Positions 6,379 through 55,551 are shown, counted from the first letter of the stretch. The stretch is 56,592 bases of DNA from Gammaproteobacteria bacterium (GCA_036526155.1 DATCZB010000147.1:1-56592); one strand, 5' to 3'. A program made the numbers and translations. The notes: a model not told the origin generated them from the letters alone.

Positions 6379-6697
6379 GGTTATGTCAACGCTGCGGGTA
6401 AGCTGGCGGCGAAAATCAAGTGCAGAACTGATAATTTCTGTGACTTGCTTCTCTTTATGTTAATGCTCCGGGGTATTTGTGATTCGGTTCACGCTGATGC
6501 GCTGGAGCCGTAAGCATACTGCCGGCTGTTGCCCTGAGGATGCGGTAGCCCTGAAGCTTTGATGCAACGCGGTGAATTATATCGGAATCGTTGCAGCCCC
6601 AGTGGGACTGACCGCATTTTTCTGAGCTGCCGAGACGCAATGGACTGCGTCTGGGTGGATAGCTCGGATGGGCGTACGGTTAAGGATTAACGGCACT

Positions 6698-7642
6698 ATG
6701 GCGCACAATTTTTTGCATCACGAAAGCACGGGAACGGTTGCCGACGCTGCTAAGGATCCGAAGGCGATGATTGACCGCTTTCTCGACGCGATTTGGATGG
6801 AACGGGGCCTGTCGGAGAACACGCTCGGCGCCTATCGCGCCGATCTCGTCGCTCTGAATCAACGCCTCGAAAGTAAATCGGTCGAGCTCGTCAAGGCTCA
6901 GCGTGCCGACATCATGGATTACATTGCCTGGCGCGTTGAGGGTGGCGCGAAGCCGCGCTCGACAGCAAGGCAGCTATCGAGCTTCCGCCGCTTCTATCGC
7001 TACCTGCTGCGCGAGGGCGTCGTCAGCGAGGACCCCACGGTCAATATCGCGATGCCGAAGATCGGCCGGTCACTGCCGCAATCGCTAAGCGAGCAGGACG
7101 TCGAGGCCCTGCTTTCCGCGCCTAAAGTAGCCGACCCGCTCGGTCACCGTGATCGCGCGATGCTCGAGGTGCTGTACGCCACCGGTGTGCGCGTCTCCGA
7201 GCTCATCAACCTCAAGCTGAGTCAGATCAATCTGAACCAGGGCGTCCTTCGTATTGTCGGCAAGGGCGATCGTGAACGGCTGATCCCGCTCGGCGACGAG
7301 GCGCAGGACTGGATCCGCGAGTTCAACGAGGGCCCGCGAGGCGAGATTCTGCTCGAGCGCCAGACCGAGTACCTGTTCCCGACCCGTCGCGGCGATCGCA
7401 TGACGCGGCAGGCGTTCTGGCACATCATCAAACGCTATGCGAAGAAGGCGGGCATCGAAAAGAAGATGTCGCCGCATACCGTCAGGCATGCATTCGCGAC
7501 GCATCTGCTGAACAATGGCGCCGATCTTCGCGTGGTGCAGCTGCTGCTCGGGCATAGCGACGTGTCGACGACCCAGATTTACACGCACGTTGCCCGCGAG
7601 CGGATGAAGGACCTGCATTCGCGCCACCATCCGCGGGGCTGA
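6698..7642 (+). CDS. xerD: site-specific tyrosine recombinase XerD
   Basis: IDRFLDAIWMERGLSENTLGAYRADL N-terminus and the catalytic region HTVRHAFATHLL...LLGHSDVSTTQIYTHV. It lies upstream of dsbC, as in E. coli. The ORF opens at 6668; plausible starts are 6698 and 6767. Confidence 0.9.
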   Translation: MAHNFLHHESTGTVADAAKDPKAMIDRFLDAIWMERGLSENTLGAYRADLVALNQRLESKSVELVKAQRADIMDYIAWRVEGGAKPRSTARQLSSFRRFYRYLLREGVVSEDPTVNIAMPKIGRSLPQSLSEQDVEALLSAPKVADPLGHRDRAMLEVLYATGVRVSELINLKLSQINLNQGVLRIVGKGDRERLIPLGDEAQDWIREFNEGPRGEILLERQTEYLFPTRRGDRMTRQAFWHIIKRYAKKAGIEKKMSPHTVRHAFATHLLNNGADLRVVQLLLGHSDVSTTQIYTHVARERMKDLHSRHHPRG

Positions 7643-7694
7643 ACATCCCCACAAGTGTTAGAATCCAGTCAAAACCACGACTGAGACGACGATC

Positions 7695-8417
7695 GTGAAC
7701 AAAAGCTGGATACTGATACCTCTGGTCCTCGTGCTCCCAGGCGTCCTGGCACAGGAAGCTCTGCAGCCAACCCGCGAAGATATTGCCGCCCGGCTCAACG
7801 GCGTCGTGGCCGAAGATCTCAAAGACTCGGCGCTCGACGGTTTCTACGAGGTCAACGTCGGCTCCAGGGTGGCGTACATCAGCGTCGACGGCCGCTTTCT
7901 GTTCGAGGGCGAGCTCTACGATCTGCAGCAGAGCCAGAACCTGACCGAGGTCTCGCGCTCGCGAGCCCGCGTGGACCTGCTCGAAGACGTCGACCGCGAG
8001 ACGATGATCGTCTTCTCGCCCGAGGAAGGCCCGGTCGAGCACACGATAACGATCTTCACGGATATCGACTGCGGCTATTGCCGCCAGTTTCACCGTGAGA
8101 TAGAGCAGGTGACGGCGCTCGGAATCGAGGTCCAGTATCTGTTCTTCCCGCGGACCGGCCCCGATACGGATTCCTGGTTCAAGGCGGAGCGGGTCTGGTG
8201 CGCCGAAGATCGCAACTCGGCCCTGACCAGCGCGAAGCTCGGCGGACACGTGCCGGAAGTCACCTGTGTCGCCAATCCTGTGGCGGCTCACTATGACATT
8301 GGCAACCAGGTCGGAGTCACCGGCACACCATCGATCTACACGTCCGGTGGACGACATATCGGCGGCTACCTGCCGCCTCAGCAACTGCTAGCAACCCTGA
8401 CTCAGCTCGTTCAGTAA
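7695..8417 (+). CDS. dsbC: thiol:disulfide interchange protein DsbC
   Basis: Signal peptide, a dimerisation N-domain and a thioredoxin fold with the CGYC active site. Sits in the xerD-dsbC synteny block. Confidence 0.85.
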   Translation: MNKSWILIPLVLVLPGVLAQEALQPTREDIAARLNGVVAEDLKDSALDGFYEVNVGSRVAYISVDGRFLFEGELYDLQQSQNLTEVSRSRARVDLLEDVDRETMIVFSPEEGPVEHTITIFTDIDCGYCRQFHREIEQVTALGIEVQYLFFPRTGPDTDSWFKAERVWCAEDRNSALTSAKLGGHVPEVTCVANPVAAHYDIGNQVGVTGTPSIYTSGGRHIGGYLPPQQLLATLTQLVQ

Positions 8418-8438
8418 TCCTCTCCTCGCGGCAGCACA

Positions 8439-9173
8439 ATGGAGTGGATCGCTTCGCCTGAAGCCTGGGTGGCCCTGGCCACTCTGACCGTCCTCGAGAT
8501 CATTCTCGGGATCGACAACATCGTTTTCATTAGCGTGCTCGTGGGCCGCCTGCCCGAGGAGAACCGGCAGCGCGCGCGCATTCTCGGACTCAGCATCGCC
8601 ATGGGTGCGCGGATTGTCCTGTTGCTGCTGATTACCTGGATCATGCGGCTCGAGGCCGTGCTTTTTTCCGTGCTCGACGTCGAGATCTCGGGGCGGGATC
8701 TGATTCTGATCGTAGGCGGCCTGTTCCTCATCGCGAAAGCGACGCTCGAGATTCATCAGGGTCTCGAAGGGGAGGAAGACGAGCACCGGGCGGGCGTTGC
8801 GCCGAGCCTGATGTCGGTCCTGGCGCAGATCGCCGTCATAGACCTCGTCTTCTCGCTAGATTCGGTCATCACGGCCGTGGGCATGGCCGAGGATGTCGAG
8901 GTCATGATCATCGCAATCGTCGTCGCCGTCGGCGTCATGATGTTCTCGGCCGGCGCCATCGGGCGCTTCGTTGACCGGCACCCGACGGTCAAGATGCTGG
9001 CCTTGAGCTTCCTCGTGCTGATCGGCACGGCGCTCGTCGCGGAGGGCATCGATCTGCATATTCCGAAGGGCTACATTTATTTTGCAATGGCGTTTTCGGT
9101 CAGTGTCGAGATGCTGAACCTGCGCCTGCGCCGAATCACGCGACCGGTTCATTTGCGCAAGAAACAGCCCTAG
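8439..9173 (+). CDS. TerC-family integral membrane protein
   Basis: 244 aa, multi-pass membrane protein with the LEIILGIDNIVFISVL and SLDSVITAVG motifs typical of TerC/YoaE-type proteins. Confidence 0.85.
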   Translation: MEWIASPEAWVALATLTVLEIILGIDNIVFISVLVGRLPEENRQRARILGLSIAMGARIVLLLLITWIMRLEAVLFSVLDVEISGRDLILIVGGLFLIAKATLEIHQGLEGEEDEHRAGVAPSLMSVLAQIAVIDLVFSLDSVITAVGMAEDVEVMIIAIVVAVGVMMFSAGAIGRFVDRHPTVKMLALSFLVLIGTALVAEGIDLHIPKGYIYFAMAFSVSVEMLNLRLRRITRPVHLRKKQP

Positions 9174-9288
9174 ACCAGATCTTACTGCGCCCTCTGCACA
9201 TCTTTGGTGCGATTTCCTTGAGACTTCTTGTGCTTGTCGGTTTGCCCGGCATGGCACTCTCGATGTTGGCAATTTTCGGGGCAGTCCG

Positions 9289-9663
9289 GTGCTGGATCAG
9301 TCGCAGGTGATCAGTGAAAAGGGCCTGGCGCAGAGCACCAGGCGGTGTCGCGAAGAGCTGAGGATTTTCGTGCGCCTGTTCGGTGGGCAGATGACGGTCA
9401 ATCAGCTGCTCGTGCTCTGTTGCATCACGCTCAGTCACCTCGAGGCCCGCCGCTGCACGGTGCAAATGATTGCCGACGAGGAAAATGTCTGCCAGCAGAC
9501 GGTCAGCGGTTGCGTCCGACGTCTGGAGTCCTACGGCCTGGTCAGGCCGGTGCCGGCCCCTGAAGACCGCAGGGTCAGACTGCTCAGTCTCACCGAAAAA
9601 GCGATTGCGCTGCACGCCGAAGCGCACATGGAGGTCGTCACCAAGAATCTGGATACCGTTTAG
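9289..9663 (+). CDS. MarR-family transcriptional regulator (short)
   Basis: 124 aa with a winged-helix core (NQLLVL..L......TVQMIADEENVCQQTVSGCVRRLESYGLV.R..APEDRRVRLLSLTEKA). Co-directional with the lipoprotein cluster and 55 nt upstream of it. Confidence 0.65.
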   Translation: MLDQSQVISEKGLAQSTRRCREELRIFVRLFGGQMTVNQLLVLCCITLSHLEARRCTVQMIADEENVCQQTVSGCVRRLESYGLVRPVPAPEDRRVRLLSLTEKAIALHAEAHMEVVTKNLDTV

Positions 9664-9718
9664 GCCCGCTCGTTCCGGTGCGCGGCCCGACCTTCAGGCT
9701 GCGGTTAATATATAGCGC

Positions 9719-11587
9719 ATGGAGATGTCAGGCATTCGCAGGCTGGCGGTGCTGCCGCTCGGGCTGCTGGCCGCCTGCGGTGGTGCAGGCACTGACGGCC
9801 CCGCGGAACCGCCAGCCCCGCCCGCAGCCGCCCAGCCGGCACCGAGTCAGCCCGAGAGGCCTTTCGTCGAGGTCACGGAAGTCTCCAACATTGCGTACCA
9901 GGTGGGTTACACGCAGCCTTCGCTGATTGGCAGAGATCTCAGCAGTGCGCTCGTCTGGCAGCTGACGACGATGACGATCGGCGGTGCGGCAGCCGGCGAC
10001 TGCGACAACGATGGCGACATCGATTTGTTCATCACTTACGGCAACACCGGCGGGCCCGACGGGGGCGGCGGACCGAATCGCCTGTATCTGAACCAGCTGG
10101 CGGAACAAGGCAATGGCTTGTTGTTCGAAGACGCCGCCGAGGCCGCGGGGGTCGCGAACACGCGCGCCGACGGCAGGGGCAACGATCGCCACAGCGGGCC
10201 GGCCTTTGCCGACATGGATGGTGACGGCGATCTCGATCTGTTTGTCGGCGGTATTTACGACGACCCGAACAAGATCTATGAGAATCGCGGCGGATGTCTC
10301 TTCAGTGACGTCACGTCGAACTCGCCGGACATCGAGAACATGCTTGCCTCGGCTACGGTCTCGGCCGGTTTTGGCGACTACGATCTCGACGGCGATCTCG
10401 ACATGTTTCTCACGCACTGGGGCACGGCCGACGTCCTGTACGGTGACCCGCGGACACTTCAGACCGATCATCTGTGGAGGAACGAGTCCGACGAATCAGG
10501 CATTCGCTATGTAAACGTCAGCGAAGAAACCGGGATTTCCGAACTGGCATGGCTCACCCGTCCCTACCTGTTCTGCGGTCTGCGCTTTTGCAGCGACGGC
10601 GTGGGTCAGACTCAGATCGCGGACTTTACATTCACGGCGACGTTCGCCCGCATCAACAATGACCTCTGGCCTGACATCGCCATCGCGGCAGATTTCGGAA
10701 CGACCCAGCTTGCCATCAATAACGGCGACGGGACCTTTCGCAACTTCGAGAATCGCGTTCTGCGCGAAGTCCAGTTCGGTATGGGTTCGGCGCTCGGCGA
10801 CATCGATAACGACGGTGATCTCGACTGGTTCGTGACCAGCATCCTCGGGCCGGGCAACGAATATTTCACACCCCACGGGAATCGACTCTTCGTGAACGAA
10901 GGAGGCTCCGCCGGGCTAATCGACGAGACCCAAAGGCTCGGCGTCGCCGATGGGTCTTTCGGCTGGGGCACCTGCTTCCTCGATATCGACAACGATTCCG
11001 ATCTCGACATCTATCACACCAACGGCTACCCGGGCTCGTTTATTTCCGATTTCGACGAATTCGATACCGATGCCAGCAGGGTCTTCGTTATGGATGAGGC
11101 AGGCACATACACTGACGAGGCTGAGGCACTGGGACTCGCGGCGCGCACGTCGGGTCGCGGAATCGTCTGTGCCGATTTCGACAACGACGGCGACACCGAC
11201 ATTCTCGAGCTCACCGATGCGCCGGGGAATTCCGCCAGGTTGTGGGAAAACCGGTCGGCAGCAGCCGGCGGTAACTTCTTGCGGCTCAAGCTCGAAGGGC
11301 TGCCGCCGAACACGGAGGCAGCCGGCGCCCGGATATTCGTGCAGGTCGGGGACAAGAGGCAGATGCGCGAAATCGTAATTGGCGGGAACTTCACGTCGCA
11401 GAATCCGACGGTTCAGATATTCGGGCTCGGCGCCGCATCCAGCGTGGACGAGATTCTCGTGGAGTGGCCGGCAATAGATGCCGGCGACGGACCGGAACGG
11501 CTCGGCACGCGAATAAACGGACCCATCGCGGCCGGTCGGCCGGGCGAGACGCTCGTGCTCAGGCACCCGGAGTTGCCGCCGCCCTGA
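9719..11587 (+). CDS. CRTAC1-family lipoprotein (FG-GAP/VCBS repeats plus C-terminal ASPIC/UnbV domain), paralog A
   Basis: Lipobox LLAAC followed by a Pro/Ala linker. Six DxDxDGDxD Ca-loop-like repeats (DCDNDGDIDLF, DMDGDGDLDLF, DYDLDGDLDMF, DIDNDGDLDWF, DIDNDSDLDIY, DFDNDGDTDIL). UnbV/ASPIC-like tail NFLRLKLEG...AAGARIFVQVGD.RQMREI..G.N..SQNP.VQIFGLG. Confidence 0.8.
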   Translation: MEMSGIRRLAVLPLGLLAACGGAGTDGPAEPPAPPAAAQPAPSQPERPFVEVTEVSNIAYQVGYTQPSLIGRDLSSALVWQLTTMTIGGAAAGDCDNDGDIDLFITYGNTGGPDGGGGPNRLYLNQLAEQGNGLLFEDAAEAAGVANTRADGRGNDRHSGPAFADMDGDGDLDLFVGGIYDDPNKIYENRGGCLFSDVTSNSPDIENMLASATVSAGFGDYDLDGDLDMFLTHWGTADVLYGDPRTLQTDHLWRNESDESGIRYVNVSEETGISELAWLTRPYLFCGLRFCSDGVGQTQIADFTFTATFARINNDLWPDIAIAADFGTTQLAINNGDGTFRNFENRVLREVQFGMGSALGDIDNDGDLDWFVTSILGPGNEYFTPHGNRLFVNEGGSAGLIDETQRLGVADGSFGWGTCFLDIDNDSDLDIYHTNGYPGSFISDFDEFDTDASRVFVMDEAGTYTDEAEALGLAARTSGRGIVCADFDNDGDTDILELTDAPGNSARLWENRSAAAGGNFLRLKLEGLPPNTEAAGARIFVQVGDKRQMREIVIGGNFTSQNPTVQIFGLGAASSVDEILVEWPAIDAGDGPERLGTRINGPIAAGRPGETLVLRHPELPPP

Positions 11588-11662
11588 GGCTCGGAAACTC
11601 TTGCTTTCGTCGATGCAGCCTACGGGGAAGGCATCCTGCCGCTCGTTGAGTAGAATGAGCGC

Positions 11663-13507
11663 ATGACGAAATCAGCCGTCAGAAAGCTGGTCGGGTTGGT
11701 TCCATTCGCTCTCATCGCTGCTTGCGATGCAGGCTCTGGCAACGGCGCGCCCGCGTCAGCGCCCGAAGCGGCAGGTCCGGCACCGGCCCCGTCGCCGACG
11801 GCCGAGCCCGGCGCACCGTTCGTCAACGTGGCCGACGCCGCGAATATCAGCTTTCGGGTCGGGTACACCAGGCCCTATCTCTTCCGGGGCCAGCGCGCCG
11901 CGTCTGAAGCGTCTTTCGGTGGCGTTGCAGCCGGCGACTGCGACAGCGACGGCGACATCGATCTCTTCATCACTTACGGCAATACCGGCGGTCCCGATGA
12001 TGGCGGTGGGGCCAACCGGCTGTATCTGAATCAGCTCGCGGAGCAGGACAACGGTCTTCTGTTCGAAGACATTGCGGAGAGCGCCGGCGTCGCGAACACG
12101 CGCGCGGACGGAAAAGGCAACGATCGCCACAGCGGTCCCGCATTCGCCGACATGGATGGCGACGGCGACCTCGACCTGTTTCTCGGCGGCATTCACGGCG
12201 ACCCGAGCAAGATTTACGAGAACCGAGGCGGCTGCCTGTTCGCCGACGTCACCGCAAATTCGCCGGAGATCGAAGCGCTGCGCGCGACGCATACGCTCTC
12301 GGCCGGTTTCGGCGACTACGATCTCGACGGCGACCTGGATATGTTTCTGACGCACTGGGGAACCAGCGATACGGTCTATGTCGGCGATGATTTGCGGTAC
12401 GGCGAGAGCGAGCACCTGTGGCGCAACGATTCGGACGCCTCGGGGATCCGCTTCGTCAATGTCAGCGAGGAAGCCGGAATTTCCGACCTGACCTGGGGGA
12501 CCCGCGCCAGGAATTTCTATATCTGGCCGCAGGATGCGGATTTCACTTTCACGGCGACCTTCGCCCGAATCGATAACGATCTTTGGCCAGACATTGCGAT
12601 CGCGGCGGATTTCGGGACCACCCAGGTCGCCATCAACAATGGAGACGGCACTTTCGCAAGCCTCGACAATCCGGGCCTGTTCGACGCCCAGTTTGGCATG
12701 GGTTCGGCACTCGGCGACTACGACAACGATGGCGATCTCGACTGGTTCGTGACCAGCATCATGGGGCCGGGCGACCCCGAGATCGGCCTCGCTCCCTGGG
12801 GCAACCGCCTGTTCGTGAACGACGGCAGCCCGACGCTGTTTGCCGATGAGACGGATCGACTCGGTGTGGCGGATGGCTCGTGGGGTTGGGCCGCCTGCCT
12901 CGCCGATATCGATAACGACTCCGATCTCGATATCTATCATACGAATGGCTGGTCCGAGCCCTACCTCGGGCACCAGGTCTGGCAGACGCCTGCATCCAGA
13001 GCTTTCGTGCTCGGTGAGGACGGGACCTACACGGAAGCCGCAGCGGCGCTCGGGTTAGCCGAAAACGTCTCCAGCCGCGGTCTCGTCTGCGCCGACTTCG
13101 ACCACGACGGTGACACGGATCTCTTCGAGGTGACTGGTGCCGCGGGCAACTCGGCGCGGCTCTGGGAGAATCGGACCGCCGCCGCGGACAACAACTTTCT
13201 GCGCGTAAAGCTCAACGGCTTGCCGCCCAACACCGAGGCCGCGGGCGCGCGAATCTTCGTGCAGGCAGGTGACACGCGGCAGATGCGTGAGATCATGGTC
13301 GGCAGCAATTACGCGTCACAGAATCCGACCGTGCAGCTGTTCGGGCTCGGTGCGGCTGCAGCGGCTGATGAAATTCTCATCGAATGGCCGCCGCTGGACA
13401 CGGCCGAAGGGCCGGTGCGCCTCGGCACGCTGATCAACGGGCCGATCGCCGCAGGCGGGCCTGGACAGACTCTCGTGATATCGCATCCTGAGTTGCCCCC
13501 GCCCTGA
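11663..13507 (+). CDS. CRTAC1-family lipoprotein (FG-GAP/VCBS repeats plus ASPIC/UnbV domain), paralog B
   Basis: Lipobox LIAAC. Collinear with paralog A and identical at most aligned positions by eye. Both proteins end in HPELPPP. Confidence 0.8.
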   Translation: MTKSAVRKLVGLVPFALIAACDAGSGNGAPASAPEAAGPAPAPSPTAEPGAPFVNVADAANISFRVGYTRPYLFRGQRAASEASFGGVAAGDCDSDGDIDLFITYGNTGGPDDGGGANRLYLNQLAEQDNGLLFEDIAESAGVANTRADGKGNDRHSGPAFADMDGDGDLDLFLGGIHGDPSKIYENRGGCLFADVTANSPEIEALRATHTLSAGFGDYDLDGDLDMFLTHWGTSDTVYVGDDLRYGESEHLWRNDSDASGIRFVNVSEEAGISDLTWGTRARNFYIWPQDADFTFTATFARIDNDLWPDIAIAADFGTTQVAINNGDGTFASLDNPGLFDAQFGMGSALGDYDNDGDLDWFVTSIMGPGDPEIGLAPWGNRLFVNDGSPTLFADETDRLGVADGSWGWAACLADIDNDSDLDIYHTNGWSEPYLGHQVWQTPASRAFVLGEDGTYTEAAAALGLAENVSSRGLVCADFDHDGDTDLFEVTGAAGNSARLWENRTAAADNNFLRVKLNGLPPNTEAAGARIFVQAGDTRQMREIMVGSNYASQNPTVQLFGLGAAAAADEILIEWPPLDTAEGPVRLGTLINGPIAAGGPGQTLVISHPELPPP

Positions 13508-13549
13508 GTGTCGTATCGAAGGGAGGCGACGAGAGAGAAAGCATCTGTA

Positions 13550-15568
13550 ATGAAGAGCAATAAAACGAAAGTTGCACTGACGATGACCGCGGCGCTGGCC
13601 GCTGCGGGTTGCGGTGTCGCGGAGCGCGACCTGCCGCCTCTGACTCTGGACGATCGCGAGGTCTCCGTCGCGCAAGTCTGGAACGAGGTGCTGCTGGAGG
13701 GCATTCGCAACGACTTCGCGCGGCCGACCGTGCATGCGCGCAATCTCTGGCACAGCTCTGCCGCAATGTATGACGCCTGGGCGGCGTATGACGACACGGC
13801 CTCGACCTGGCTGCTCGGAAAGTCCCAGGCCGGTTACGATTGCAGCTATACGCCGCCGGATTTTCCGCGCGACGTGCAGCTCGCGCGCGAGGAGGCAATC
13901 AGCTTCGCCGCCTATCGCATCGTCAGGCACCGATTCCGAGATTCCCCCGGCGCAGATTTCGTCGCCGAGCTCGCCGACGAGACCATGGCGGAGCTCGGCT
14001 ATGACGTTACCGACACGAGCACGGCGTATGCGCGCGGCGCCGCGGCGGCGCTCGGCAATCACATCGCCGAGTGCTATATCGGGTACGGCCTGCAGGACGG
14101 ATCGAACGAGGCAAACCGGTATGCGCCGCTGGTCTATGCGCCGTTCAATCCGCCGATCGAGCCCGAGTTGCCGGGCAATCCCAACATCATCGACCTCGAC
14201 CGCTGGCAGCAGATCACGCTGACGCTGTCGATCGATCAGTCCGGCAACATCGTCGAGGGCACGCCGGACTTCGTCGGCCCGGAGTGGGGCAACGTCCACC
14301 CGTTCTCGCTGACGGCCGAGCAGCGCTCGACCTGTCCGCGCTCGGATTTCGACCTGCCCGTCTATCACGATCCCGGGCCACCGCCGAGCCACGCCGGTCC
14401 GCTGGCCGACAATTACAAGTGGTCGCATTCGCTCGTTTCCGTCTGGTCGAGCCATCTGGATCCGGACCGGGGCCGCGGCGCCGAGCTGATCGACATCTCG
14501 CCGGCGAGCATCGGCAATATCCGGAGCTACCCGACGACCTTCGAGGGGCAGCGGGGCTTCTACGATCTGCTGCTCGGTGGAACTCCCGAGACCGGATACC
14601 CCGTCAATCCGGCCACGGGGCAGCCCTACGAGCCGCAGCTCGTGCCGCTCGCCGACTATGCGCGCGTCATCGCCGAATTCTGGGCCGATGGGCCGGATTC
14701 GGAGACGCCACCGGGGCACTGGTTCGTGATCGTCAACGAGATCAACAGGCATCCGGATCTCGTCAAGCGATTCGAGGGGGAGGGGCCTGAGCTCGGCACA
14801 CTCGAGTGGGACGTGAAGATCTACTTCGCGCTCGGCGGCGCGATGCACGATGCGGCAATCTCGGCCTGGAGCGCGAAGGGATGCTACGACTACGTGCGGC
14901 CGGTCTCTTCGATCCGCGCGATGGCGGCGCTCGGTCAGAGCACAGACCCGGGCGACGCCGACTGTCCCTATGATCCGAACGGCATCCCGTACATTGACGA
15001 TCCCGACGATCCTGCGGGGGACGGCAGCGGACGGCTGATCGATTGCGTACGTCCCGGCGATCCGCTGGCGGACGATCCGAATGTGCCCGGCGTCGACGCG
15101 CGGAATGTCGGCAAGATCAAGCTCTATGCATGGCGAGGACCGGCTTATATCAGCAACGCGGTCTTCGACTATGCCGGCGTCGGCTGGGTTCTGGCCGAGG
15201 ACTGGTGGCCGTACCAGCGCCCGACGTTCGTCACCCCGCCATTTGCCGGTTACATCTCCGGCCATTCGACCTATTCGCGCACGGCGGCGGAGCTCCTGAC
15301 GCTGTTCACTGGCGATCCGTACTTCCCCGGCGGCAAGAGCGAGTTTCCCGCGGAGCAGAACGAGTTTCTGGTCTTCGAGGAAGGGCCGAGCGTCGGCCTG
15401 ACGCTCGAATGGGCCACCTATGTCGACGCGTCGGACCAATGCAGCCTGTCGCGGATCTGGGGCGGGATTCACCCGCCGGCCGACGATATTCCGGGCCGAA
15501 GAATCGGGATGGTGCTCGGTCCCGCGGCATTTACGCACGCGCGCGGGTACTTCAACGGGCAGAACTAG
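13550..15568 (+). CDS. PAP2-superfamily / vanadium-dependent haloperoxidase-like lipoprotein
   Basis: Lipobox LAAAGC. All three PAP2/V-haloperoxidase motifs are present: K-x6-RP (KGCYDYVRP), SGH (GYISGHSTYS) and SR-x5-H-x3-D (SRIWGGIHPPAD). A large N-terminal domain precedes them. The ORF opens at 13508; I chose the ATG at 13550. Confidence 0.75.
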   Translation: MKSNKTKVALTMTAALAAAGCGVAERDLPPLTLDDREVSVAQVWNEVLLEGIRNDFARPTVHARNLWHSSAAMYDAWAAYDDTASTWLLGKSQAGYDCSYTPPDFPRDVQLAREEAISFAAYRIVRHRFRDSPGADFVAELADETMAELGYDVTDTSTAYARGAAAALGNHIAECYIGYGLQDGSNEANRYAPLVYAPFNPPIEPELPGNPNIIDLDRWQQITLTLSIDQSGNIVEGTPDFVGPEWGNVHPFSLTAEQRSTCPRSDFDLPVYHDPGPPPSHAGPLADNYKWSHSLVSVWSSHLDPDRGRGAELIDISPASIGNIRSYPTTFEGQRGFYDLLLGGTPETGYPVNPATGQPYEPQLVPLADYARVIAEFWADGPDSETPPGHWFVIVNEINRHPDLVKRFEGEGPELGTLEWDVKIYFALGGAMHDAAISAWSAKGCYDYVRPVSSIRAMAALGQSTDPGDADCPYDPNGIPYIDDPDDPAGDGSGRLIDCVRPGDPLADDPNVPGVDARNVGKIKLYAWRGPAYISNAVFDYAGVGWVLAEDWWPYQRPTFVTPPFAGYISGHSTYSRTAAELLTLFTGDPYFPGGKSEFPAEQNEFLVFEEGPSVGLTLEWATYVDASDQCSLSRIWGGIHPPADDIPGRRIGMVLGPAAFTHARGYFNGQN

Positions 15569-15581
15569 ACGAGCTATACAG

Positions 15582-15668
15582 TGGTGCCGGGAGAGAGACT
15601 CGAACTCTCACGGGTTTAACCCCACCGGATTTTGAGTCCGGCGCGTCTACCAATTCCGCCACCCCGGC
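15582..15668 (-). tRNA. tRNA-Leu (anticodon CAA)
   Basis: The reverse complement reads GCCGGGGTGGCGGAATTGGTAGACGCGCCGGACTCAAAATCCGGTGGGGTTAAACCCGTGAGAGTTCGAGTCTCTCTCCCGGCACCA. It has a 7-bp acceptor stem, the anticodon stem CCGGA/TCCGG with loop CTCAAAA, a long variable arm, the T-arm GAGAG-TTCGAGT-CTCTC and an encoded CCA. Confidence 0.92.
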
Positions 15669-15731
15669 GCGGAACCGAAGTTTGCCAAAACTTCAGGCCC
15701 CCCGCTCGGGTTTCGTACAATCCGCCGTCCC

Positions 15732-17875
<2,144 letters not shown>

Positions 17876-51641: not shown

Positions 51642-53666
51642 CTAGAAACTGAAGCTGATCTGAGCGTCGACCCGTCGGTCGATGATGTCGCCGAAGATGT
51701 GCTGTTGCAGCTCGTCGTCGAAGATATTCTGACCGATGATCTTGAAGGTCATGCTCTCGTCGCGGAACCGCCAGCCGACTGATGCGTTCACCGCGGTGAA
51801 TGCATCGGTCGGTGCGCGGGCAAACAGCACGTCGGCCCAGTAGGACTCATCCTGATAGTTGACCGTCGCGTTCCAGAAGAACCCGCCCATATCCTGACCG
51901 ACGCCTACGTTGGCCCGCCATTCCGGGGCGCGGTTGACATCGGTCGGATCGGCGCCGGTGATGTCCGGATCGTCCTGCCACGACAGGTTCAGCCACCAGT
52001 ACCAGTCTTCCAGCTGCTGGTCGAGCGAGAACTCGACGCCCTTGTCCACCGTCTTGCCGACGTTGCGGTAGCTGTAATCTGAAGGCACGACGCCGGCGAG
52101 GCCGCCGAAAGGGCAGGCCGGCAGGGTTCCGGGCGCGAGCGCAAAGCAGGGAATCAGCTGCGCCGGCATCGTCGGGCCGGGCGACGGCAGGTTGGTTGGC
52201 CCATAAAGATCGGCGGTGAAGAAGTCGATCGAGTCCCTGGTCTCGTTGCGGTAGGCGGCGACCGTCACCGCCATGCCGTTGTCGAGGTTGCCGACATAGC
52301 CGATCTCCCAGGCTTCGAGCGACTCCTCGGTCAGGGCCACGTCGCCGTAAGCGTCGCCGACGGCGGCGACCCCGGGAGCGAGCGGCTGCAGGATGCTGAT
52401 CTGCAGGTAGTTGTTGATCGCCGAGGGCGTGCGGAAGGCTTCGTTGTAGGAAATCCTGAACGTGTGGTTCGGCGAGAACGAGTAGAGCAGGCTGGTGCGC
52501 GGCGTGACGACCGAATCCTTGAGCGGGTCGATATCGTCGTAGCGCAGCCCGAGAACCCAGCGCCATTGATCGCTGAGCTGGATCTCGTCCTGGATGAACA
52601 CGCCCCATTCGTCCTTGTCGTCGGCAGCCGGCGCGATGTTGAGATCGAAATCGTGCATGCGGACGTTGCCGCCGTAAGTGACGAGATGCCGGTCGCCGAC
52701 CTGGGTCGAATTCGAAACGTCGATGTTGAACGTATCGTTGATGAAGCGGAACCCCAGCGGCTGCCCGGTCGTGTCTACCGTCAGGAGGTTCGTGCCGAAG
52801 CCGTCGAGGAACTGCGCCGAGGCACCGAAATGGAAATTGCCCTTGTACCAGTCGGCATGGAAATACTGAAGGTCCGTGTCGTCTTTGATGTCGAACGGCC
52901 CGATTCCGGTATGGATGATGCCGTCGGTCGACGCCGCGCCGGCGCCCAGCGAGAAATAGCCGTCCTCCAGTCCCCAGTCGAAACTGACGTCGGCGCGCCG
53001 CTGCGTCGTGCCGTCGTTCTGAAACGGAGGATAGGTTTGCGGCGGGTTCGAGCCCGGCACCTCGCCCTGAGGCCGATCATAGGCATCCTGATCGAAGACG
53101 CCGCCTGAAATCTTGTAGGCAAAATCGGAGTCGCCGCCTGCATGGACGACATTGGCCGTGTTCGTGCCGATCACCACATTGGTGCCGACGATTTCCTGCG
53201 GGCGCTTGGTGATGATGTTGGTCACACCGGACATCGCGTTCGCGCCCCAGACCGCGCTGCCCGGCCCGCGAACGACCTCGATCTGCTTGATCTCCGTCGA
53301 CTGGATCGGCAGCAGATCCCAGAGCACGATGCCGAAGAAGTCGAGATACACCGAGCGCCCGTCGAGCAACACGAGCTGGGAGGTCGACAGCGTGTTGGTG
53401 GCGCCGCGAGCCGTCATGTTGATATCGCGCGTGCTGGTCTGGGCAATGTTGACGCCGGGCACGTTGCGCAACAGGTCGCCGAGGTCGTCGGCCGGCGTTC
53501 GCTCGATGTCGGCGGCAGTGATGACCGTCACGGCCGCAGGCGCCTGGGCGATGCTGTTTTCCGTCCGCGTTGCCGAAACGACGACCGTTTCCTCGTCGCC
53601 CTGGGCCCATGCCGTTGCTGAGCTAACTGCAAGTGCAAGTGCAGAGAACCGGATTGCATTGCGCAT
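51642..53666 (-). CDS. TonB-dependent receptor
   Basis: Signal peptide (AVSSATAWA|QG), TonB box ETVVVSATR, plug domain (IEVVRGPGSAVWGANAMSGVTNIITK), a beta-barrel and a terminal ...ISFSF. Start chosen at M104 of the 777-aa ORF. Confidence 0.88.
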   Translation of the reverse strand: MRNAIRFSALALAVSSATAWAQGDEETVVVSATRTENSIAQAPAAVTVITAADIERTPADDLGDLLRNVPGVNIAQTSTRDINMTARGATNTLSTSQLVLLDGRSVYLDFFGIVLWDLLPIQSTEIKQIEVVRGPGSAVWGANAMSGVTNIITKRPQEIVGTNVVIGTNTANVVHAGGDSDFAYKISGGVFDQDAYDRPQGEVPGSNPPQTYPPFQNDGTTQRRADVSFDWGLEDGYFSLGAGAASTDGIIHTGIGPFDIKDDTDLQYFHADWYKGNFHFGASAQFLDGFGTNLLTVDTTGQPLGFRFINDTFNIDVSNSTQVGDRHLVTYGGNVRMHDFDLNIAPAADDKDEWGVFIQDEIQLSDQWRWVLGLRYDDIDPLKDSVVTPRTSLLYSFSPNHTFRISYNEAFRTPSAINNYLQISILQPLAPGVAAVGDAYGDVALTEESLEAWEIGYVGNLDNGMAVTVAAYRNETRDSIDFFTADLYGPTNLPSPGPTMPAQLIPCFALAPGTLPACPFGGLAGVVPSDYSYRNVGKTVDKGVEFSLDQQLEDWYWWLNLSWQDDPDITGADPTDVNRAPEWRANVGVGQDMGGFFWNATVNYQDESYWADVLFARAPTDAFTAVNASVGWRFRDESMTFKIIGQNIFDDELQQHIFGDIIDRRVDAQISFSF

Positions 53667-53949
53667 ATCGTGTAATCCCCTGTTGTTTGTCAAAGCCAGC
53701 TGTTTCGGGATAAGACAGAAAAAGTTCTCTGCCCCCAGGGCCGGTTTGTATTCAGCGGGTGTCGAGATTGTACCCGTATACGCGCGGTCGCCGATATAGC
53801 GCAATAGACGGTAAACTAGCGGAAAACTGAAACGACCGTTTTCGATTGCGTTCCGCGCAGTCCCTGAGCGCACTGGCGGCGAATGGTGCGGCAAGGCCAA
53901 CGGGTAAGTGGGTGAGGGGAGCCCGCCAACCGCAGTATTCAGCATTTCT

Positions 53950-55551
53950 ATGGACATCAAACGCGGATTCCGCATTGGCTCATGGGCCGTCTCGCCGTTG
54001 ACGGGAGAGATCCGCTCGGCCGATCAGGCTGTCCACCTGGAGCCAAAAGTCATGGAAGTGCTGATGGTGCTCGCCGAGAAAGCGGAGAGCGTCGTGCTTC
54101 GGGACGAATTGCTCGCAAGCGTATGGGGGGCGCGCGCAGCAACCAGCGACGAGCCTTTGACCCGCTGCATTGCGCAGTTGCGCCAGTCGCTCGGCGACTC
54201 CTCCCGCAACCCCAGCTACATTCAGACAGTGCCCAAGCGCGGCTACCGGCTCATGGTTCCCGCGCTGCCTCTCGAGGATCAGCGGGAAGCGGTTCGTCCC
54301 GCGGCATCGGCCAAAGCAGGGGCGCCGTCGGCCGGGCGTCCGGCGGCAGCGCTCGGGCCGGCGCAGCGCGTCGCCTGGCTCGGGGCCATTGCCGTTGCGG
54401 GGCTGGCTGCTTACGTTGCGCTGCCGATCCTGTTCGGTCCGAACGAATCCGGGCAACTCGATCCATGCTACGTCGAGGAAGTCGAGCAGCCGCTGCGCAG
54501 CATCCATCCCGACGCCCTCGAGGCGTGCACGGACGGCGTCAAGGAGATGGGCGAGCGCACGGCTGACTCGCTCCGATTCGCCATGAACTACTTCCGGCGT
54601 GCGATGGATGTCGAGCCGGAATACGGTTCGGCCATTATCAATCTGGCCCGGGCGATGGTGCTCCTTCCGACCTACGAAGAATTTCCTGACCCCGCTGATT
54701 GTGCTTACGATCGCAAACTGTCCGACCAGTCCGACTGCTATGACGCGGCAATCAAGCTCGTCGATCTGCACATCGGCGACGTCGCTTACATCGGCGACTA
54801 CGTTTACGGAATCAAGGGGTACGTCTATACGCAGCAGCTGAGATGGCGCCTGGCTTCCGGTCAGTTCGCCCGGGCTGTGGAGATGACGGGCAACGACGCC
54901 GACATGTGGCAATGGTATTCGCAGTTTCTTGCGGCGGTCGGCGATCTGGATGGTGCGCTCGAGGCAATCGCCAGAGCCTACGAATTGAATCCGCGCTCCG
55001 GCGTCATTCTGGATCGTTATGCCATTCTGTTGATGTGGCACGAGCGGCACGACGAGGCGGGGCGAAGGTTCGACGAGGCGGCGCAGTATCCGCATGTGCC
55101 TTTCGAGGCGGGGCGCCTCATCTGGAGCATCCACCAGGGTCGCTGGGACGAGGTCGGTGAGCTTCTCGCAGGGCATGCGGGCGGCGCCGATGACGCATGG
55201 ATCGACGAGCTCGTTGCCGGACTCAGAGATCCGGCATTGCGCCCGCGAGCCGCGGCTGCCGTGGAGCGGGCGAGCCTCAGCGGCAGCCTTTCCGGGCAGT
55301 ATGTCTACGGCGCCTGGGTGTTACTGGGTGAAACCGAGCGCGCCATCGAGGCGGCGCTCGACCTGATCGACGAGCGCCCTGGCTCGATGTCCGTCGAATT
55401 CCTGTTTGCACCCGAGACCAGACTGCTGCGCCAGCATCCGCGTTTTGCAGAGATTGTTCGGGAGCTCGAGCTCGACGACTACTGGGCCGCGGATCCCGCG
55501 AATTGTCCGCAGCAGTTTCAGATGCCCGGCGCGACTAACTGGTGTATCTGA
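53950..55551 (+). CDS. ToxR/CadC-like membrane-anchored winged-helix regulator with periplasmic TPR-like domain
   Basis: The N-terminal OmpR/PhoB-type DNA-binding domain (LEPKVMEVLMVLAE..VVLRDELL..VW......DEPLTRCIAQLRQSL......IQTVPKRGYRL) has no receiver domain. It is followed by one TM helix (VAWLGAIAVAGLAAYVALPILF) and a helical-repeat C-terminal region. Confidence 0.75.
   Translation: MDIKRGFRIGSWAVSPLTGEIRSADQAVHLEPKVMEVLMVLAEKAESVVLRDELLASVWGARAATSDEPLTRCIAQLRQSLGDSSRNPSYIQTVPKRGYRLMVPALPLEDQREAVRPAASAKAGAPSAGRPAAALGPAQRVAWLGAIAVAGLAAYVALPILFGPNESGQLDPCYVEEVEQPLRSIHPDALEACTDGVKEMGERTADSLRFAMNYFRRAMDVEPEYGSAIINLARAMVLLPTYEEFPDPADCAYDRKLSDQSDCYDAAIKLVDLHIGDVAYIGDYVYGIKGYVYTQQLRWRLASGQFARAVEMTGNDADMWQWYSQFLAAVGDLDGALEAIARAYELNPRSGVILDRYAILLMWHERHDEAGRRFDEAAQYPHVPFEAGRLIWSIHQGRWDEVGELLAGHAGGADDAWIDELVAGLRDPALRPRAAAAVERASLSGSLSGQYVYGAWVLLGETERAIEAALDLIDERPGSMSVEFLFAPETRLLRQHPRFAEIVRELELDDYWAADPANCPQQFQMPGATNWCI

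Follow-up and report, generated by a model that had tools for sequence, protein, structure and literature searches.

A contig of 56,592 nucleotides from a gammaproteobacterium (Gammaproteobacteria bacterium, GCA_036526155.1 DATCZB010000147.1:1-56592; this whole stretch is called the window) carries a MarR-like gene followed by genes for two CRTAC1/UnbV-type propeller lipoproteins (P2 and P3) and for a large lipoprotein related to vanadium-dependent haloperoxidases (VHPOs; P4). The locus raises the question why propeller proteins are encoded next to a haloperoxidase-like protein, and what these products might do together. The explanation that we favour is that P3 and P4, accompanied by an extra P2, represent the split form of a two-module extracytoplasmic enzyme that likely performs vanadate-dependent halide oxidation. 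We place slightly better than even confidence in this explanation.

The neighbourhoods of P4 homologs were surveyed using one genome per GTDB species, which gave 80 loci (numbered here with an L) from Gammaproteobacteria, Bacteroidota, Rhodothermales and Phycisphaerales. A P2-like propeller open reading frame (ORF) was present in the flanks or fused to the haloperoxidase-like part in 36 of these loci, and it was located directly upstream and in the same direction in 22 of the 65 loci with enough upstream sequence. In about 20 of the 80 loci a single ORF of ~1,230-1,370 amino acids (aa) encoded the propeller together with the UnbV and haloperoxidase-like domains. Such fusions occurred both in Gammaproteobacteria (among them L003-5, L011, L012, L015, L017, L019, L021, L022, L035, L058, L059) and in Bacteroidota (among them L047, L064, L072, L074, L075, L079). 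Since the parts are adjacent or fused at this frequency, their linkage is far beyond chance. The original prediction had proposed that CRTAC1/UnbV propellers are functionally coupled to the haloperoxidase-like protein and had asked whether the two co-occur across phyla; the coupling is supported by the fusions, and the co-occurrence by the frequency of linkage and the presence of fusions in two phyla.

The best 120 database matches to one of the fusions were 1,141-1,754 aa long, and 119 of them combined PF13517 (FG-GAP_3), PF07593 (UnbV_ASPIC), PF18998 and PF22778 (VCPO_2nd), mostly together with PF21167 (DUF6851). Because these database entries are independent gene calls, the fusions are not artefacts of the ORF caller. 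Five further loci encode a fusion to a different FG-GAP propeller without UnbV. The linker domain of the fusions is PF18998 in Gammaproteobacteria and PKD_6 in Bacteroidota. In a rough neighbour-joining tree of the catalytic modules the fusions occupied three separate clades: the gammaproteobacterial fused clade was sister to the clade of the window's split form, and a Bacteroidota fused clade and the clade of FG-GAP-only fusions were placed elsewhere. The coupling of propeller and haloperoxidase-like protein has been kept repeatedly, whether by several fusions or by several fissions. Because the parts are fused elsewhere, the window would contain a widespread two-module enzyme in split form, and by the Rosetta-stone argument P3 and P4 would act together and probably associate physically. 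The fusions would also provide the first concrete functional partner for the CRTAC1/UnbV family, the bacterial role of which is undefined.

Where the parts are split, each close relative examined has one to three CRTAC1-like genes beside the haloperoxidase-like gene. In L085, in which P4 is 88% identical, xerD-dsbC-terC is followed by a MarR-like gene, one CRTAC1-like gene and the haloperoxidase-like gene. In L086 (P4 95% identical) the order is terC, MarR-like, CRTAC1-like, haloperoxidase-like, a second CRTAC1-like gene, tRNA-Leu and queA; coverage of the L086 contig is 3x, and frameshifts seem to affect its haloperoxidase-like, queA and tgt genes. Three loci with P4 homologs of 78-83% identity (L081, L082, L084) have two or three CRTAC1-like genes and then the haloperoxidase-like gene, and three loci chosen by their P2 homologs, blind to the neighbours (L088-L090), were all in such clusters. 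These six clusters lie at other genomic sites than terC-queA and are flanked by TonB-dependent receptors, 2-oxoglutarate (2OG)-Fe(II) oxygenases (PF13640, PF13759, DUF6445), a Trp_halogenase-family gene and sulfotransferases. All-versus-all clustering of the neighbour ORFs of the 80 loci gave no other broadly conserved neighbour, and for that reason the propeller and haloperoxidase-like pair appears to be the functional unit, with the other neighbours being clade-specific.

The two propeller proteins are paralogs with 66% identity. Pfam detected FG-GAP_3 in five stretches of each (E = 7.5e-31 for P2 and 1.2e-26 for P3) as well as UnbV_ASPIC (1.7e-11 and 4.3e-12), and a motif count gave exactly six D-x-[DN]-x-[DN]-[GS]-x-x-D loops in P2 and six in P3, in agreement with the earlier description of six Ca-loop motifs and a C-terminal ASPIC/UnbV domain in both. 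With seven blades expected, six predicted Ca loops would leave one blade without such a loop, as judged from the sequence. The lipoboxes that had been noted on the three large products are also present: LLAAC with Cys20 in P2, LIAAC with Cys21 in P3, and a less canonical AAAGC with Cys21 and Ala at −3 in P4. P3 is 85% (L085) and 88% (L086) identical to the product of the gene immediately 5' of the haloperoxidase-like gene, whereas P2 is only ~66% identical to every CRTAC1-like copy in these two loci and is therefore an extra, lineage-specific paralog. It appears that P3 alone is the conserved partner of the haloperoxidase-like gene; the initial view of the two propeller genes as equal members does not hold, as only the P3 gene has orthologs in the closest relatives. 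In L086, the closest relative, the cluster occupies 7666-13413 and the second CRTAC1-like gene is located 3' of the haloperoxidase-like gene, as opposed to the 5' pair in the window, and because of this difference in gene order the extra paralog was gained or placed independently in the two.

Homologs of P2 are labelled 'CRTAC1 family protein' by NCBI and 'enediyne biosynthesis protein E4' by JGI, none of the four proteins has a specific NCBIfam model, and no sequence relative of the propeller protein was found in the PDB. Vertebrate CRTAC1 carries a C-terminal epidermal growth factor (EGF)-like domain. Since Pfam reports no EGF family in P2 or P3, we consider these proteins bacterial-type members of the family and not orthologs of vertebrate CRTAC1.

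P4 matched DUF6851 (6e-8) and VCPO_2nd (2e-8) in Pfam, both above the gathering threshold, and no PAP2 family. Its active-site residues can be read from the sequence (Table 1), which confirms the complete PAP2/vanadium-haloperoxidase motif set reported for this protein. Motif 1 aligns with W-H-H-K-x6-RP of NapH3 and W-Y-N-K-x6-RP of XhnO11, and motif 3 with SRVWGGVH of XhnO11 and SRMYGGIH of the vanadium iodoperoxidase (VIPO) of Zobellia. K443, R450, S570, G571, H572, R635 and H641 are kept in 24-27 of 27 homologs. In 105 sequences W440, K443, R450 and P451 are invariant, and the other oxyanion residues are invariant or nearly so. The Trp three residues before the motif-1 Lys is a halide-pocket residue in vanadium chloroperoxidase (VCPO).

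Searches of PDB sequences with P4 alone returned only VHPO-family chains, namely NapH3 (8cxl, 7e-7), 9l8x, Zobellia VIPO (4cit) and 9ptr. With a 27-sequence profile we found 9l8x and 9ptr (5e-11), 8cxl (2e-9), 4cit (1.5e-5) and NapH1, and there was no PAP2 phosphatase among the matches of either search. An AlphaFold model built from the 27 close homologs had a predicted local distance difference test score (pLDDT) of 56.7 and was set aside. The final AlphaFold2 input consisted of 105 sequences, the 78 added homologs being mostly fused proteins, and gave a model with a pLDDT of 90.7 and a predicted template modelling (TM) score of 0.92. Foldseek aligned this model to NapH3, NapH1, XhnO11 and Zobellia VIPO with E-values of 1e-17 to 7e-12 and target-normalised TM-scores of 0.73-0.78. 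Curvularia VCPO followed at ~1e-12, the algal and cyanobacterial bromoperoxidases were weaker, and PAP2 acid phosphatases appeared only at E ~1 with a TM-score of 0.26. The model thus predicts for P4 the two-helical-bundle VHPO fold with the full set of putative vanadate-binding residues, and the PAP2/haloperoxidase-like fold that had been anticipated from the sequence is matched by VHPOs and not by PAP2 phosphatases.

In the proposed mechanism the first module would consist of the Ca2+-loop FG-GAP beta-propeller and the UnbV/ASPIC domain, and the second of the catalytic domain with the two-helical-bundle VHPO fold and the vanadate-binding residues. P2, P3 and P4 would be lipid-anchored through flexible N-terminal linkers and would associate at the cell envelope, mirroring the covalent joining in the fused homologs. 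P4 would bind vanadate, oxidise halide with H2O2 and act on an exogenous molecule, while the propeller could bind or present the substrate or position the enzyme. An extracytoplasmic location would fit both the lipoprotein signals and the Por_Secre_tail/type IX secretion system (T9SS) sorting domains found on Bacteroidota homologs of P4. The 2OG-Fe(II) oxygenases and the Trp_halogenase-family gene in related clusters, combined with the lack of a Pho-box-like site near the cluster, would point to oxidative or halogen chemistry rather than phosphorus scavenging.

Several observations weigh against this explanation. No gene for an H2O2 source or for vanadate uptake was evident in the window. P4 shares its catalytic motif set with PAP2 acid phosphatases, and VCPO in its apo form is able to remove phosphate from substrates (PDB 3bb0); hydrolytic chemistry therefore keeps a share of the probability. 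Some homologs have lost catalytic residues, with R635 replaced by N or S in 3 of 27, H572 by P in one and H641 by Q in one; these homologs may be inactive paralogs. The identity of P4 to solved VHPOs is only 14-18%, and the query-normalised TM-score is ~0.5, which is due to ~200 inserted residues (~183-390 and 462-560) without a solved counterpart. P3 has Asp at position +2 (Cys21-Asp22 codons at 11723-11728), where P2 and P4 have Gly; Asp at +2 is the inner-membrane retention signal in E. coli, which bears on the surface exposure that had been suggested at first. The different +2 residues could mean that P3 is sorted differently from P2 and P4, or that the rule differs in this organism. Finally, the physical association of the split products is deduced solely from the fusions found elsewhere.

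The familiar VHPOs come from algae, fungi, cyanobacteria and the pathways of Streptomyces. Zobellia galactanivorans VIPO (PDB 4CIT/4USZ), an experimentally characterised enzyme that is also from a marine bacterium, has the same two-bundle fold as P4, with a target-normalised TM-score of 0.73-0.74 at Foldseek E-values of 5e-13 to 7e-12, and its PPF-x-Y-x-SGHS and SR-x5-H segments align residue by residue. The sequence identity between the two is 16%, and P4 is ~220 aa larger and a lipoprotein. A propeller partner or fusion is always present in P4's gammaproteobacterial clade and frequent elsewhere, whereas no propeller partner is known to us for VIPO. The closest functional precedent is provided by the alkyl-quinolone-brominating VHPOs, which are bacterial and mostly gammaproteobacterial, have signals for Sec export with signal peptidase I or II (Sec/SPI or Sec/SPII), occur in variable gene contexts and, as secreted enzymes, brominate exogenous quinolone signals (PMC11312541). 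They belong to another VHPO subfamily than P4, and no propeller partner is described for them.

On the propeller side, the combination of FG-GAP_3 and UnbV_ASPIC is shared with vertebrate CRTAC1/ASPIC and with the enediyne protein UnbV/E4. P2 and P3 differ from these in being bacterial lipoproteins with a haloperoxidase-like partner and with no polyketide synthase or enediyne genes nearby. Integrin-alpha-like and VCBS propellers, which bind Ca2+ through DxDxDG loops and in many cases also bind sugars or metals, share these loops and the predicted seven-blade-type repeats with P2 and P3 (PMC8023676). Our literature search found no paper that linked UnbV/CRTAC1-type proteins with haloperoxidases or TonB, or that mentioned DUF6851, and sequence and Foldseek searches of the PDB found no members of the P4 clade among solved or characterised VHPOs. 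None of the component families is new, and annotation pipelines already have names for them; the exported, propeller-partnered VHPO clade, which occurs here in split form, appears to be new.

This clade is part of a large family, with at least 7,994 relatives of P4 among 90%-identity clusters. At 50% identity, the related representatives numbered 4,358 (E<=1e-3), 2,360 (E<=1e-10) and 793 (E<=1e-30), and NCBI names the close relatives 'vanadium-dependent haloperoxidase'. Among the best 150 representatives 92 gave near-full-length matches to P4, only 17 of which stood alone; a long N-terminal extension was present in 21, a long C-terminal one in 47 and both in 7. The thousands of sequences span marine Gammaproteobacteria, Bacteroidota, Rhodothermales and Phycisphaerales, including sponge-associated metagenome-assembled genomes (MAGs). 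Two Bacteroidota homologs (L025 9929-13045 and L043 9938-13858) have five MopE-type motifs or ~600 aa of immunoglobulin-like repeats before the T9SS domain, and the MopE-type repeats, which are putatively copper-binding, hint at a link to redox metals.

Going further, CRTAC1/UnbV Ca2+ propellers might be obligate subunits of a large cell-surface VHPO clade (the 793 clusters) in marine heterotrophs. Propeller and VHPO would jointly halogenate exogenous organic matter or signals in a targeted oxidative reaction, the products of which might pass to the adjacent TonB-dependent receptors. We put this forward tentatively, as it is more likely to be wrong than right. If true, it would give the UnbV/ASPIC family its first biochemical role, and it might be relevant to E4/UnbV, the unexplained protein encoded in enediyne clusters; the enediyne pathway is reported to proceed via a diiodinated intermediate (title cited in PMC12308405). 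If the proteins are active haloperoxidases, bacteria could have a sizeable share in marine halogen cycling, turnover of dissolved organic matter or signal interference. The split arrangement is convenient here, as the modules can be expressed and deleted separately.

In the window, ORF calling showed that four ORFs on the + strand fill 9289-15568, and the layout originally described, with four co-directional genes separated by short spacers and placed between terC and tRNA-Leu/queA, is correct (Table 1). The P4 ORF opens upstream of its likely ATG start, and with that start the P3-P4 spacer is 42 nucleotides (nt). The left flank consists of xerD, dsbC and terC, and the right flank of tRNA-Leu(CAA), queA, tgt, yajC and secD. 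As tRNA-Leu(CAA) adjoins queA in L085 and L086 too, it is the right limit of a variable terC-queA interval. The GC profile is flat (0.60-0.66), and the cluster consequently has no signature of a recent island. An Rfam scan of 8000-17000 found the tRNA only and no riboswitch, and PADLOC gave no defence-system match except for a generic winged helix-turn-helix (wHTH) likeness of the MarR-like protein to Csa3.

Table 1. Features of the haloperoxidase-like locus and its borders, in window coordinates (residue numbers refer to P4).
Feature	Position	Strand	Remarks
TerC-like ORF	8439..9173		88-91% identical to L085/L086 genes with Pfam TerC match
MarR-like gene	9289..9663	+	GTG start, 124 aa
Spacer, 55 nt	9664..9718	+	ends in TTAATATATAGCGC immediately 5' of P2 ATG
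P2, CRTAC1/UnbV-type lipoprotein	9719..11587	+	622 aa
Spacer, 75 nt	11588..11662	+	conserved GAGTAGAATGA element (11640..11662)
P3, CRTAC1/UnbV-type lipoprotein	11663..13507	+	614 aa
P4, predicted VHPO-fold lipoprotein	13550..15568	+	672 aa from ATG; ORF opens at GTG 13508
Motif 1, W440-x-x-K443-x6-R450-P451	14867..14902	+	from sequence
Motif 2, S570-G571-H572	15257..15265	+	from sequence; aligns with PPFPEYTSGHS of Zobellia iodoperoxidase
Motif 3, S634-R635-x5-H641-x3-D645	15449..15484	+	from sequence
tRNA-Leu(CAA)	15582..15668	-	ARAGORN; Rfam 58 bits; convergent with P4
queA	15732..16757		right flank

Tight spacing could mean a single four-gene operon with the neighbouring MarR-type protein as its dedicated regulator, which was the initial proposal and which we consider doubtful. 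In its favour are the co-directional genes with short spacers that lack a terminator-like site, and the MarR-like gene holds the same position in L085 and L086, where it is 75-87% identical. The protein matches Pfam MarR, HTH_27 and MarR_2 at ~2e-7, all above gathering (MarR with 31.1 bits against a cutoff of 24.6, residues 36-96), and scores 17-25 bits in NCBIfam, where the cutoffs are 55-240. It is short, with ~19 residues after the wHTH; full-length MarR proteins measure ~140-150 aa and have dimerisation helices at both termini. The gene is, however, limited to close relatives: tblastn found no homolog in the 80 species-level loci, there was no MarR gene in the six Pfam-annotated related clusters, of which the haloperoxidase-like or propeller proteins are ~68-83% identical to those of the window, and a metagenome scan with the MarR-like alignment added one further relative on a short contig (L087, 90% identical). 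Since the relatives with informative flanks, L085 and L086, have the entire xerD-dsbC-terC...queA synteny in common with the window, the adjacency carries little functional information. The four-gene unit under a dedicated MarR regulator is therefore not supported; the MarR-like gene appears to be a real, conserved but clade-restricted neighbour outside the conserved module, which it may or may not regulate.

The spacers themselves also argue against a single regulated transcript. The GAGTAGAATGA element is conserved upstream of the P3 orthologs in L085 and L086, and its -10-like TAGAAT, which ends 7 nt 5' of the P3 ATG, suggests that P3 has a promoter of its own. In an alignment of the upstream regions TTAATATATAGCGC takes the equivalent position before P2, where it may serve as a -10-like element, and the two together hint at promoters directly before the propeller genes. 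A transcript started from a TAGAAT at this distance from the start codon would have a very short leader or none. An inverted-repeat search of the spacers gave no operator-like palindrome, the sole repeat being located inside the MarR-like gene. Promoter and terminator consensus scans were uninformative, with counts at or near shuffle expectation.

P4 could instead be a surface or periplasmic PAP2-type phosphoesterase that scavenges organic phosphate, with the propeller binding a phosphorylated polymer, which we regard as unlikely. Phosphatases are common in marine settings and P4 is predicted to be exported. PAP2 class A acid phosphatases (PhoN, PhoC, E. blattae) follow the same K, R, SGH, SR, H, D logic, and P4 has the full KX6RP/SGH/SRX5HX3D motif, including the Asp that is absent from NapH3 and XhnO11 in the alignments. 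Moreover, VCPO itself forms a phosphate intermediate (3bb0). The class A enzymes are, however, single-bundle proteins of ~220 aa, whereas P4 would have both VHPO helical bundles, and neither Pfam, which gives VCPO_2nd, nor the PDB sequence and fold searches described above connected it closely to PAP2 phosphatases. The motif spacings of PAP2 phosphatases are 12-54 and 31-54 residues, and those of P4, 118 and 62, are outside these ranges. No Pho-regulon neighbours were seen, and a search with the E. coli-type Pho-box consensus found no site near the cluster.

A still less probable alternative is that P4 performs neither vanadate nor phosphate chemistry and acts as an isomerase, or serves as a non-catalytic module for oxyanion or ligand binding or for adhesion beside an integrin-like propeller. 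NapH3, the best structural match of P4, is homologous to VHPOs but carries out a rearrangement instead of a halogenation, and like NapH1 and XhnO11 it is a natural-product pathway enzyme. These Streptomyces-type proteins (PDB 3W35/3W36, 8CXL, 9L8X) are the best sequence and fold matches of P4 and share with it W-x-x-K-x6-RP, SR-x5-H and an N-terminal bundle corresponding to the DUF6851 region. Integrin-like VCBS propellers are commonly binding scaffolds (PMC8023676), and the loss of catalytic residues in some family members would agree with a binding role. Unlike P4, NapH3 and XhnO11 have F or S at the position of His572 and lack Asp645 in the alignments, and none of the three proteins has a lipid anchor or a propeller. 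P4 keeps the SGH His, where NapH3 has SGF, and all other oxyanion ligands, and the conservation of these residues in the 105 sequences suggests selection on catalysis. The last alternative, a coincidental adjacency of functionally unrelated genes, can be taken as effectively refuted by the fusions, which join the parts in about 20 of the 80 species-level genomes, representing two phyla, and in ~120 protein clusters, and the parts are adjacent in all close relatives examined.

Some further neighbours of the propeller and haloperoxidase-like genes are clade-specific. TonB-dependent receptors were found in 9 of the 80 species-level loci and in 3 close-relative loci, mostly gammaproteobacterial, and in L011, L012, L015, L044 and L058 the receptor gene is located directly upstream of the fused gene and in the same direction. 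The only TonB-dependent-receptor-like ORF detected in the window (51642-53975, - strand) is 36 kb away from the cluster, which thus lacks the receptor linkage of its relatives. A gene of the Trp_halogenase family (flavin halogenase-like) lies on the opposite strand beside the haloperoxidase-like gene in L082 (12093-13601), L083 (2389-3897) and L088 (13980-15461). The same clusters encode TonB-dependent receptors of 1,150-1,210 aa, 2OG-Fe(II) oxygenases, DUF6445 and a sulfotransferase; two halogenase-type families in one receptor-flanked cluster are suggestive. In L085 the segment before tRNA-Leu-queA (6673-13328) includes MipA, a cytochrome b/molybdopterin oxidoreductase pair resembling MsrPQ, a helix-turn-helix gene and small ORFs, whereas the window is without these.

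Other fused genes have unrelated gene contexts. Near some of those from Gammaproteobacteria, PhyH-type dioxygenases and sulfatases were observed (L019 1988-3031, L021 11860-13287, L091 13990-19726). The fused gene also occurs in several copies: a sponge-associated gammaproteobacterial MAG has three in tandem (L035 2451-12206), and another genome carries four paralogs on one contig (P0329, P0340, P0346, P0359).

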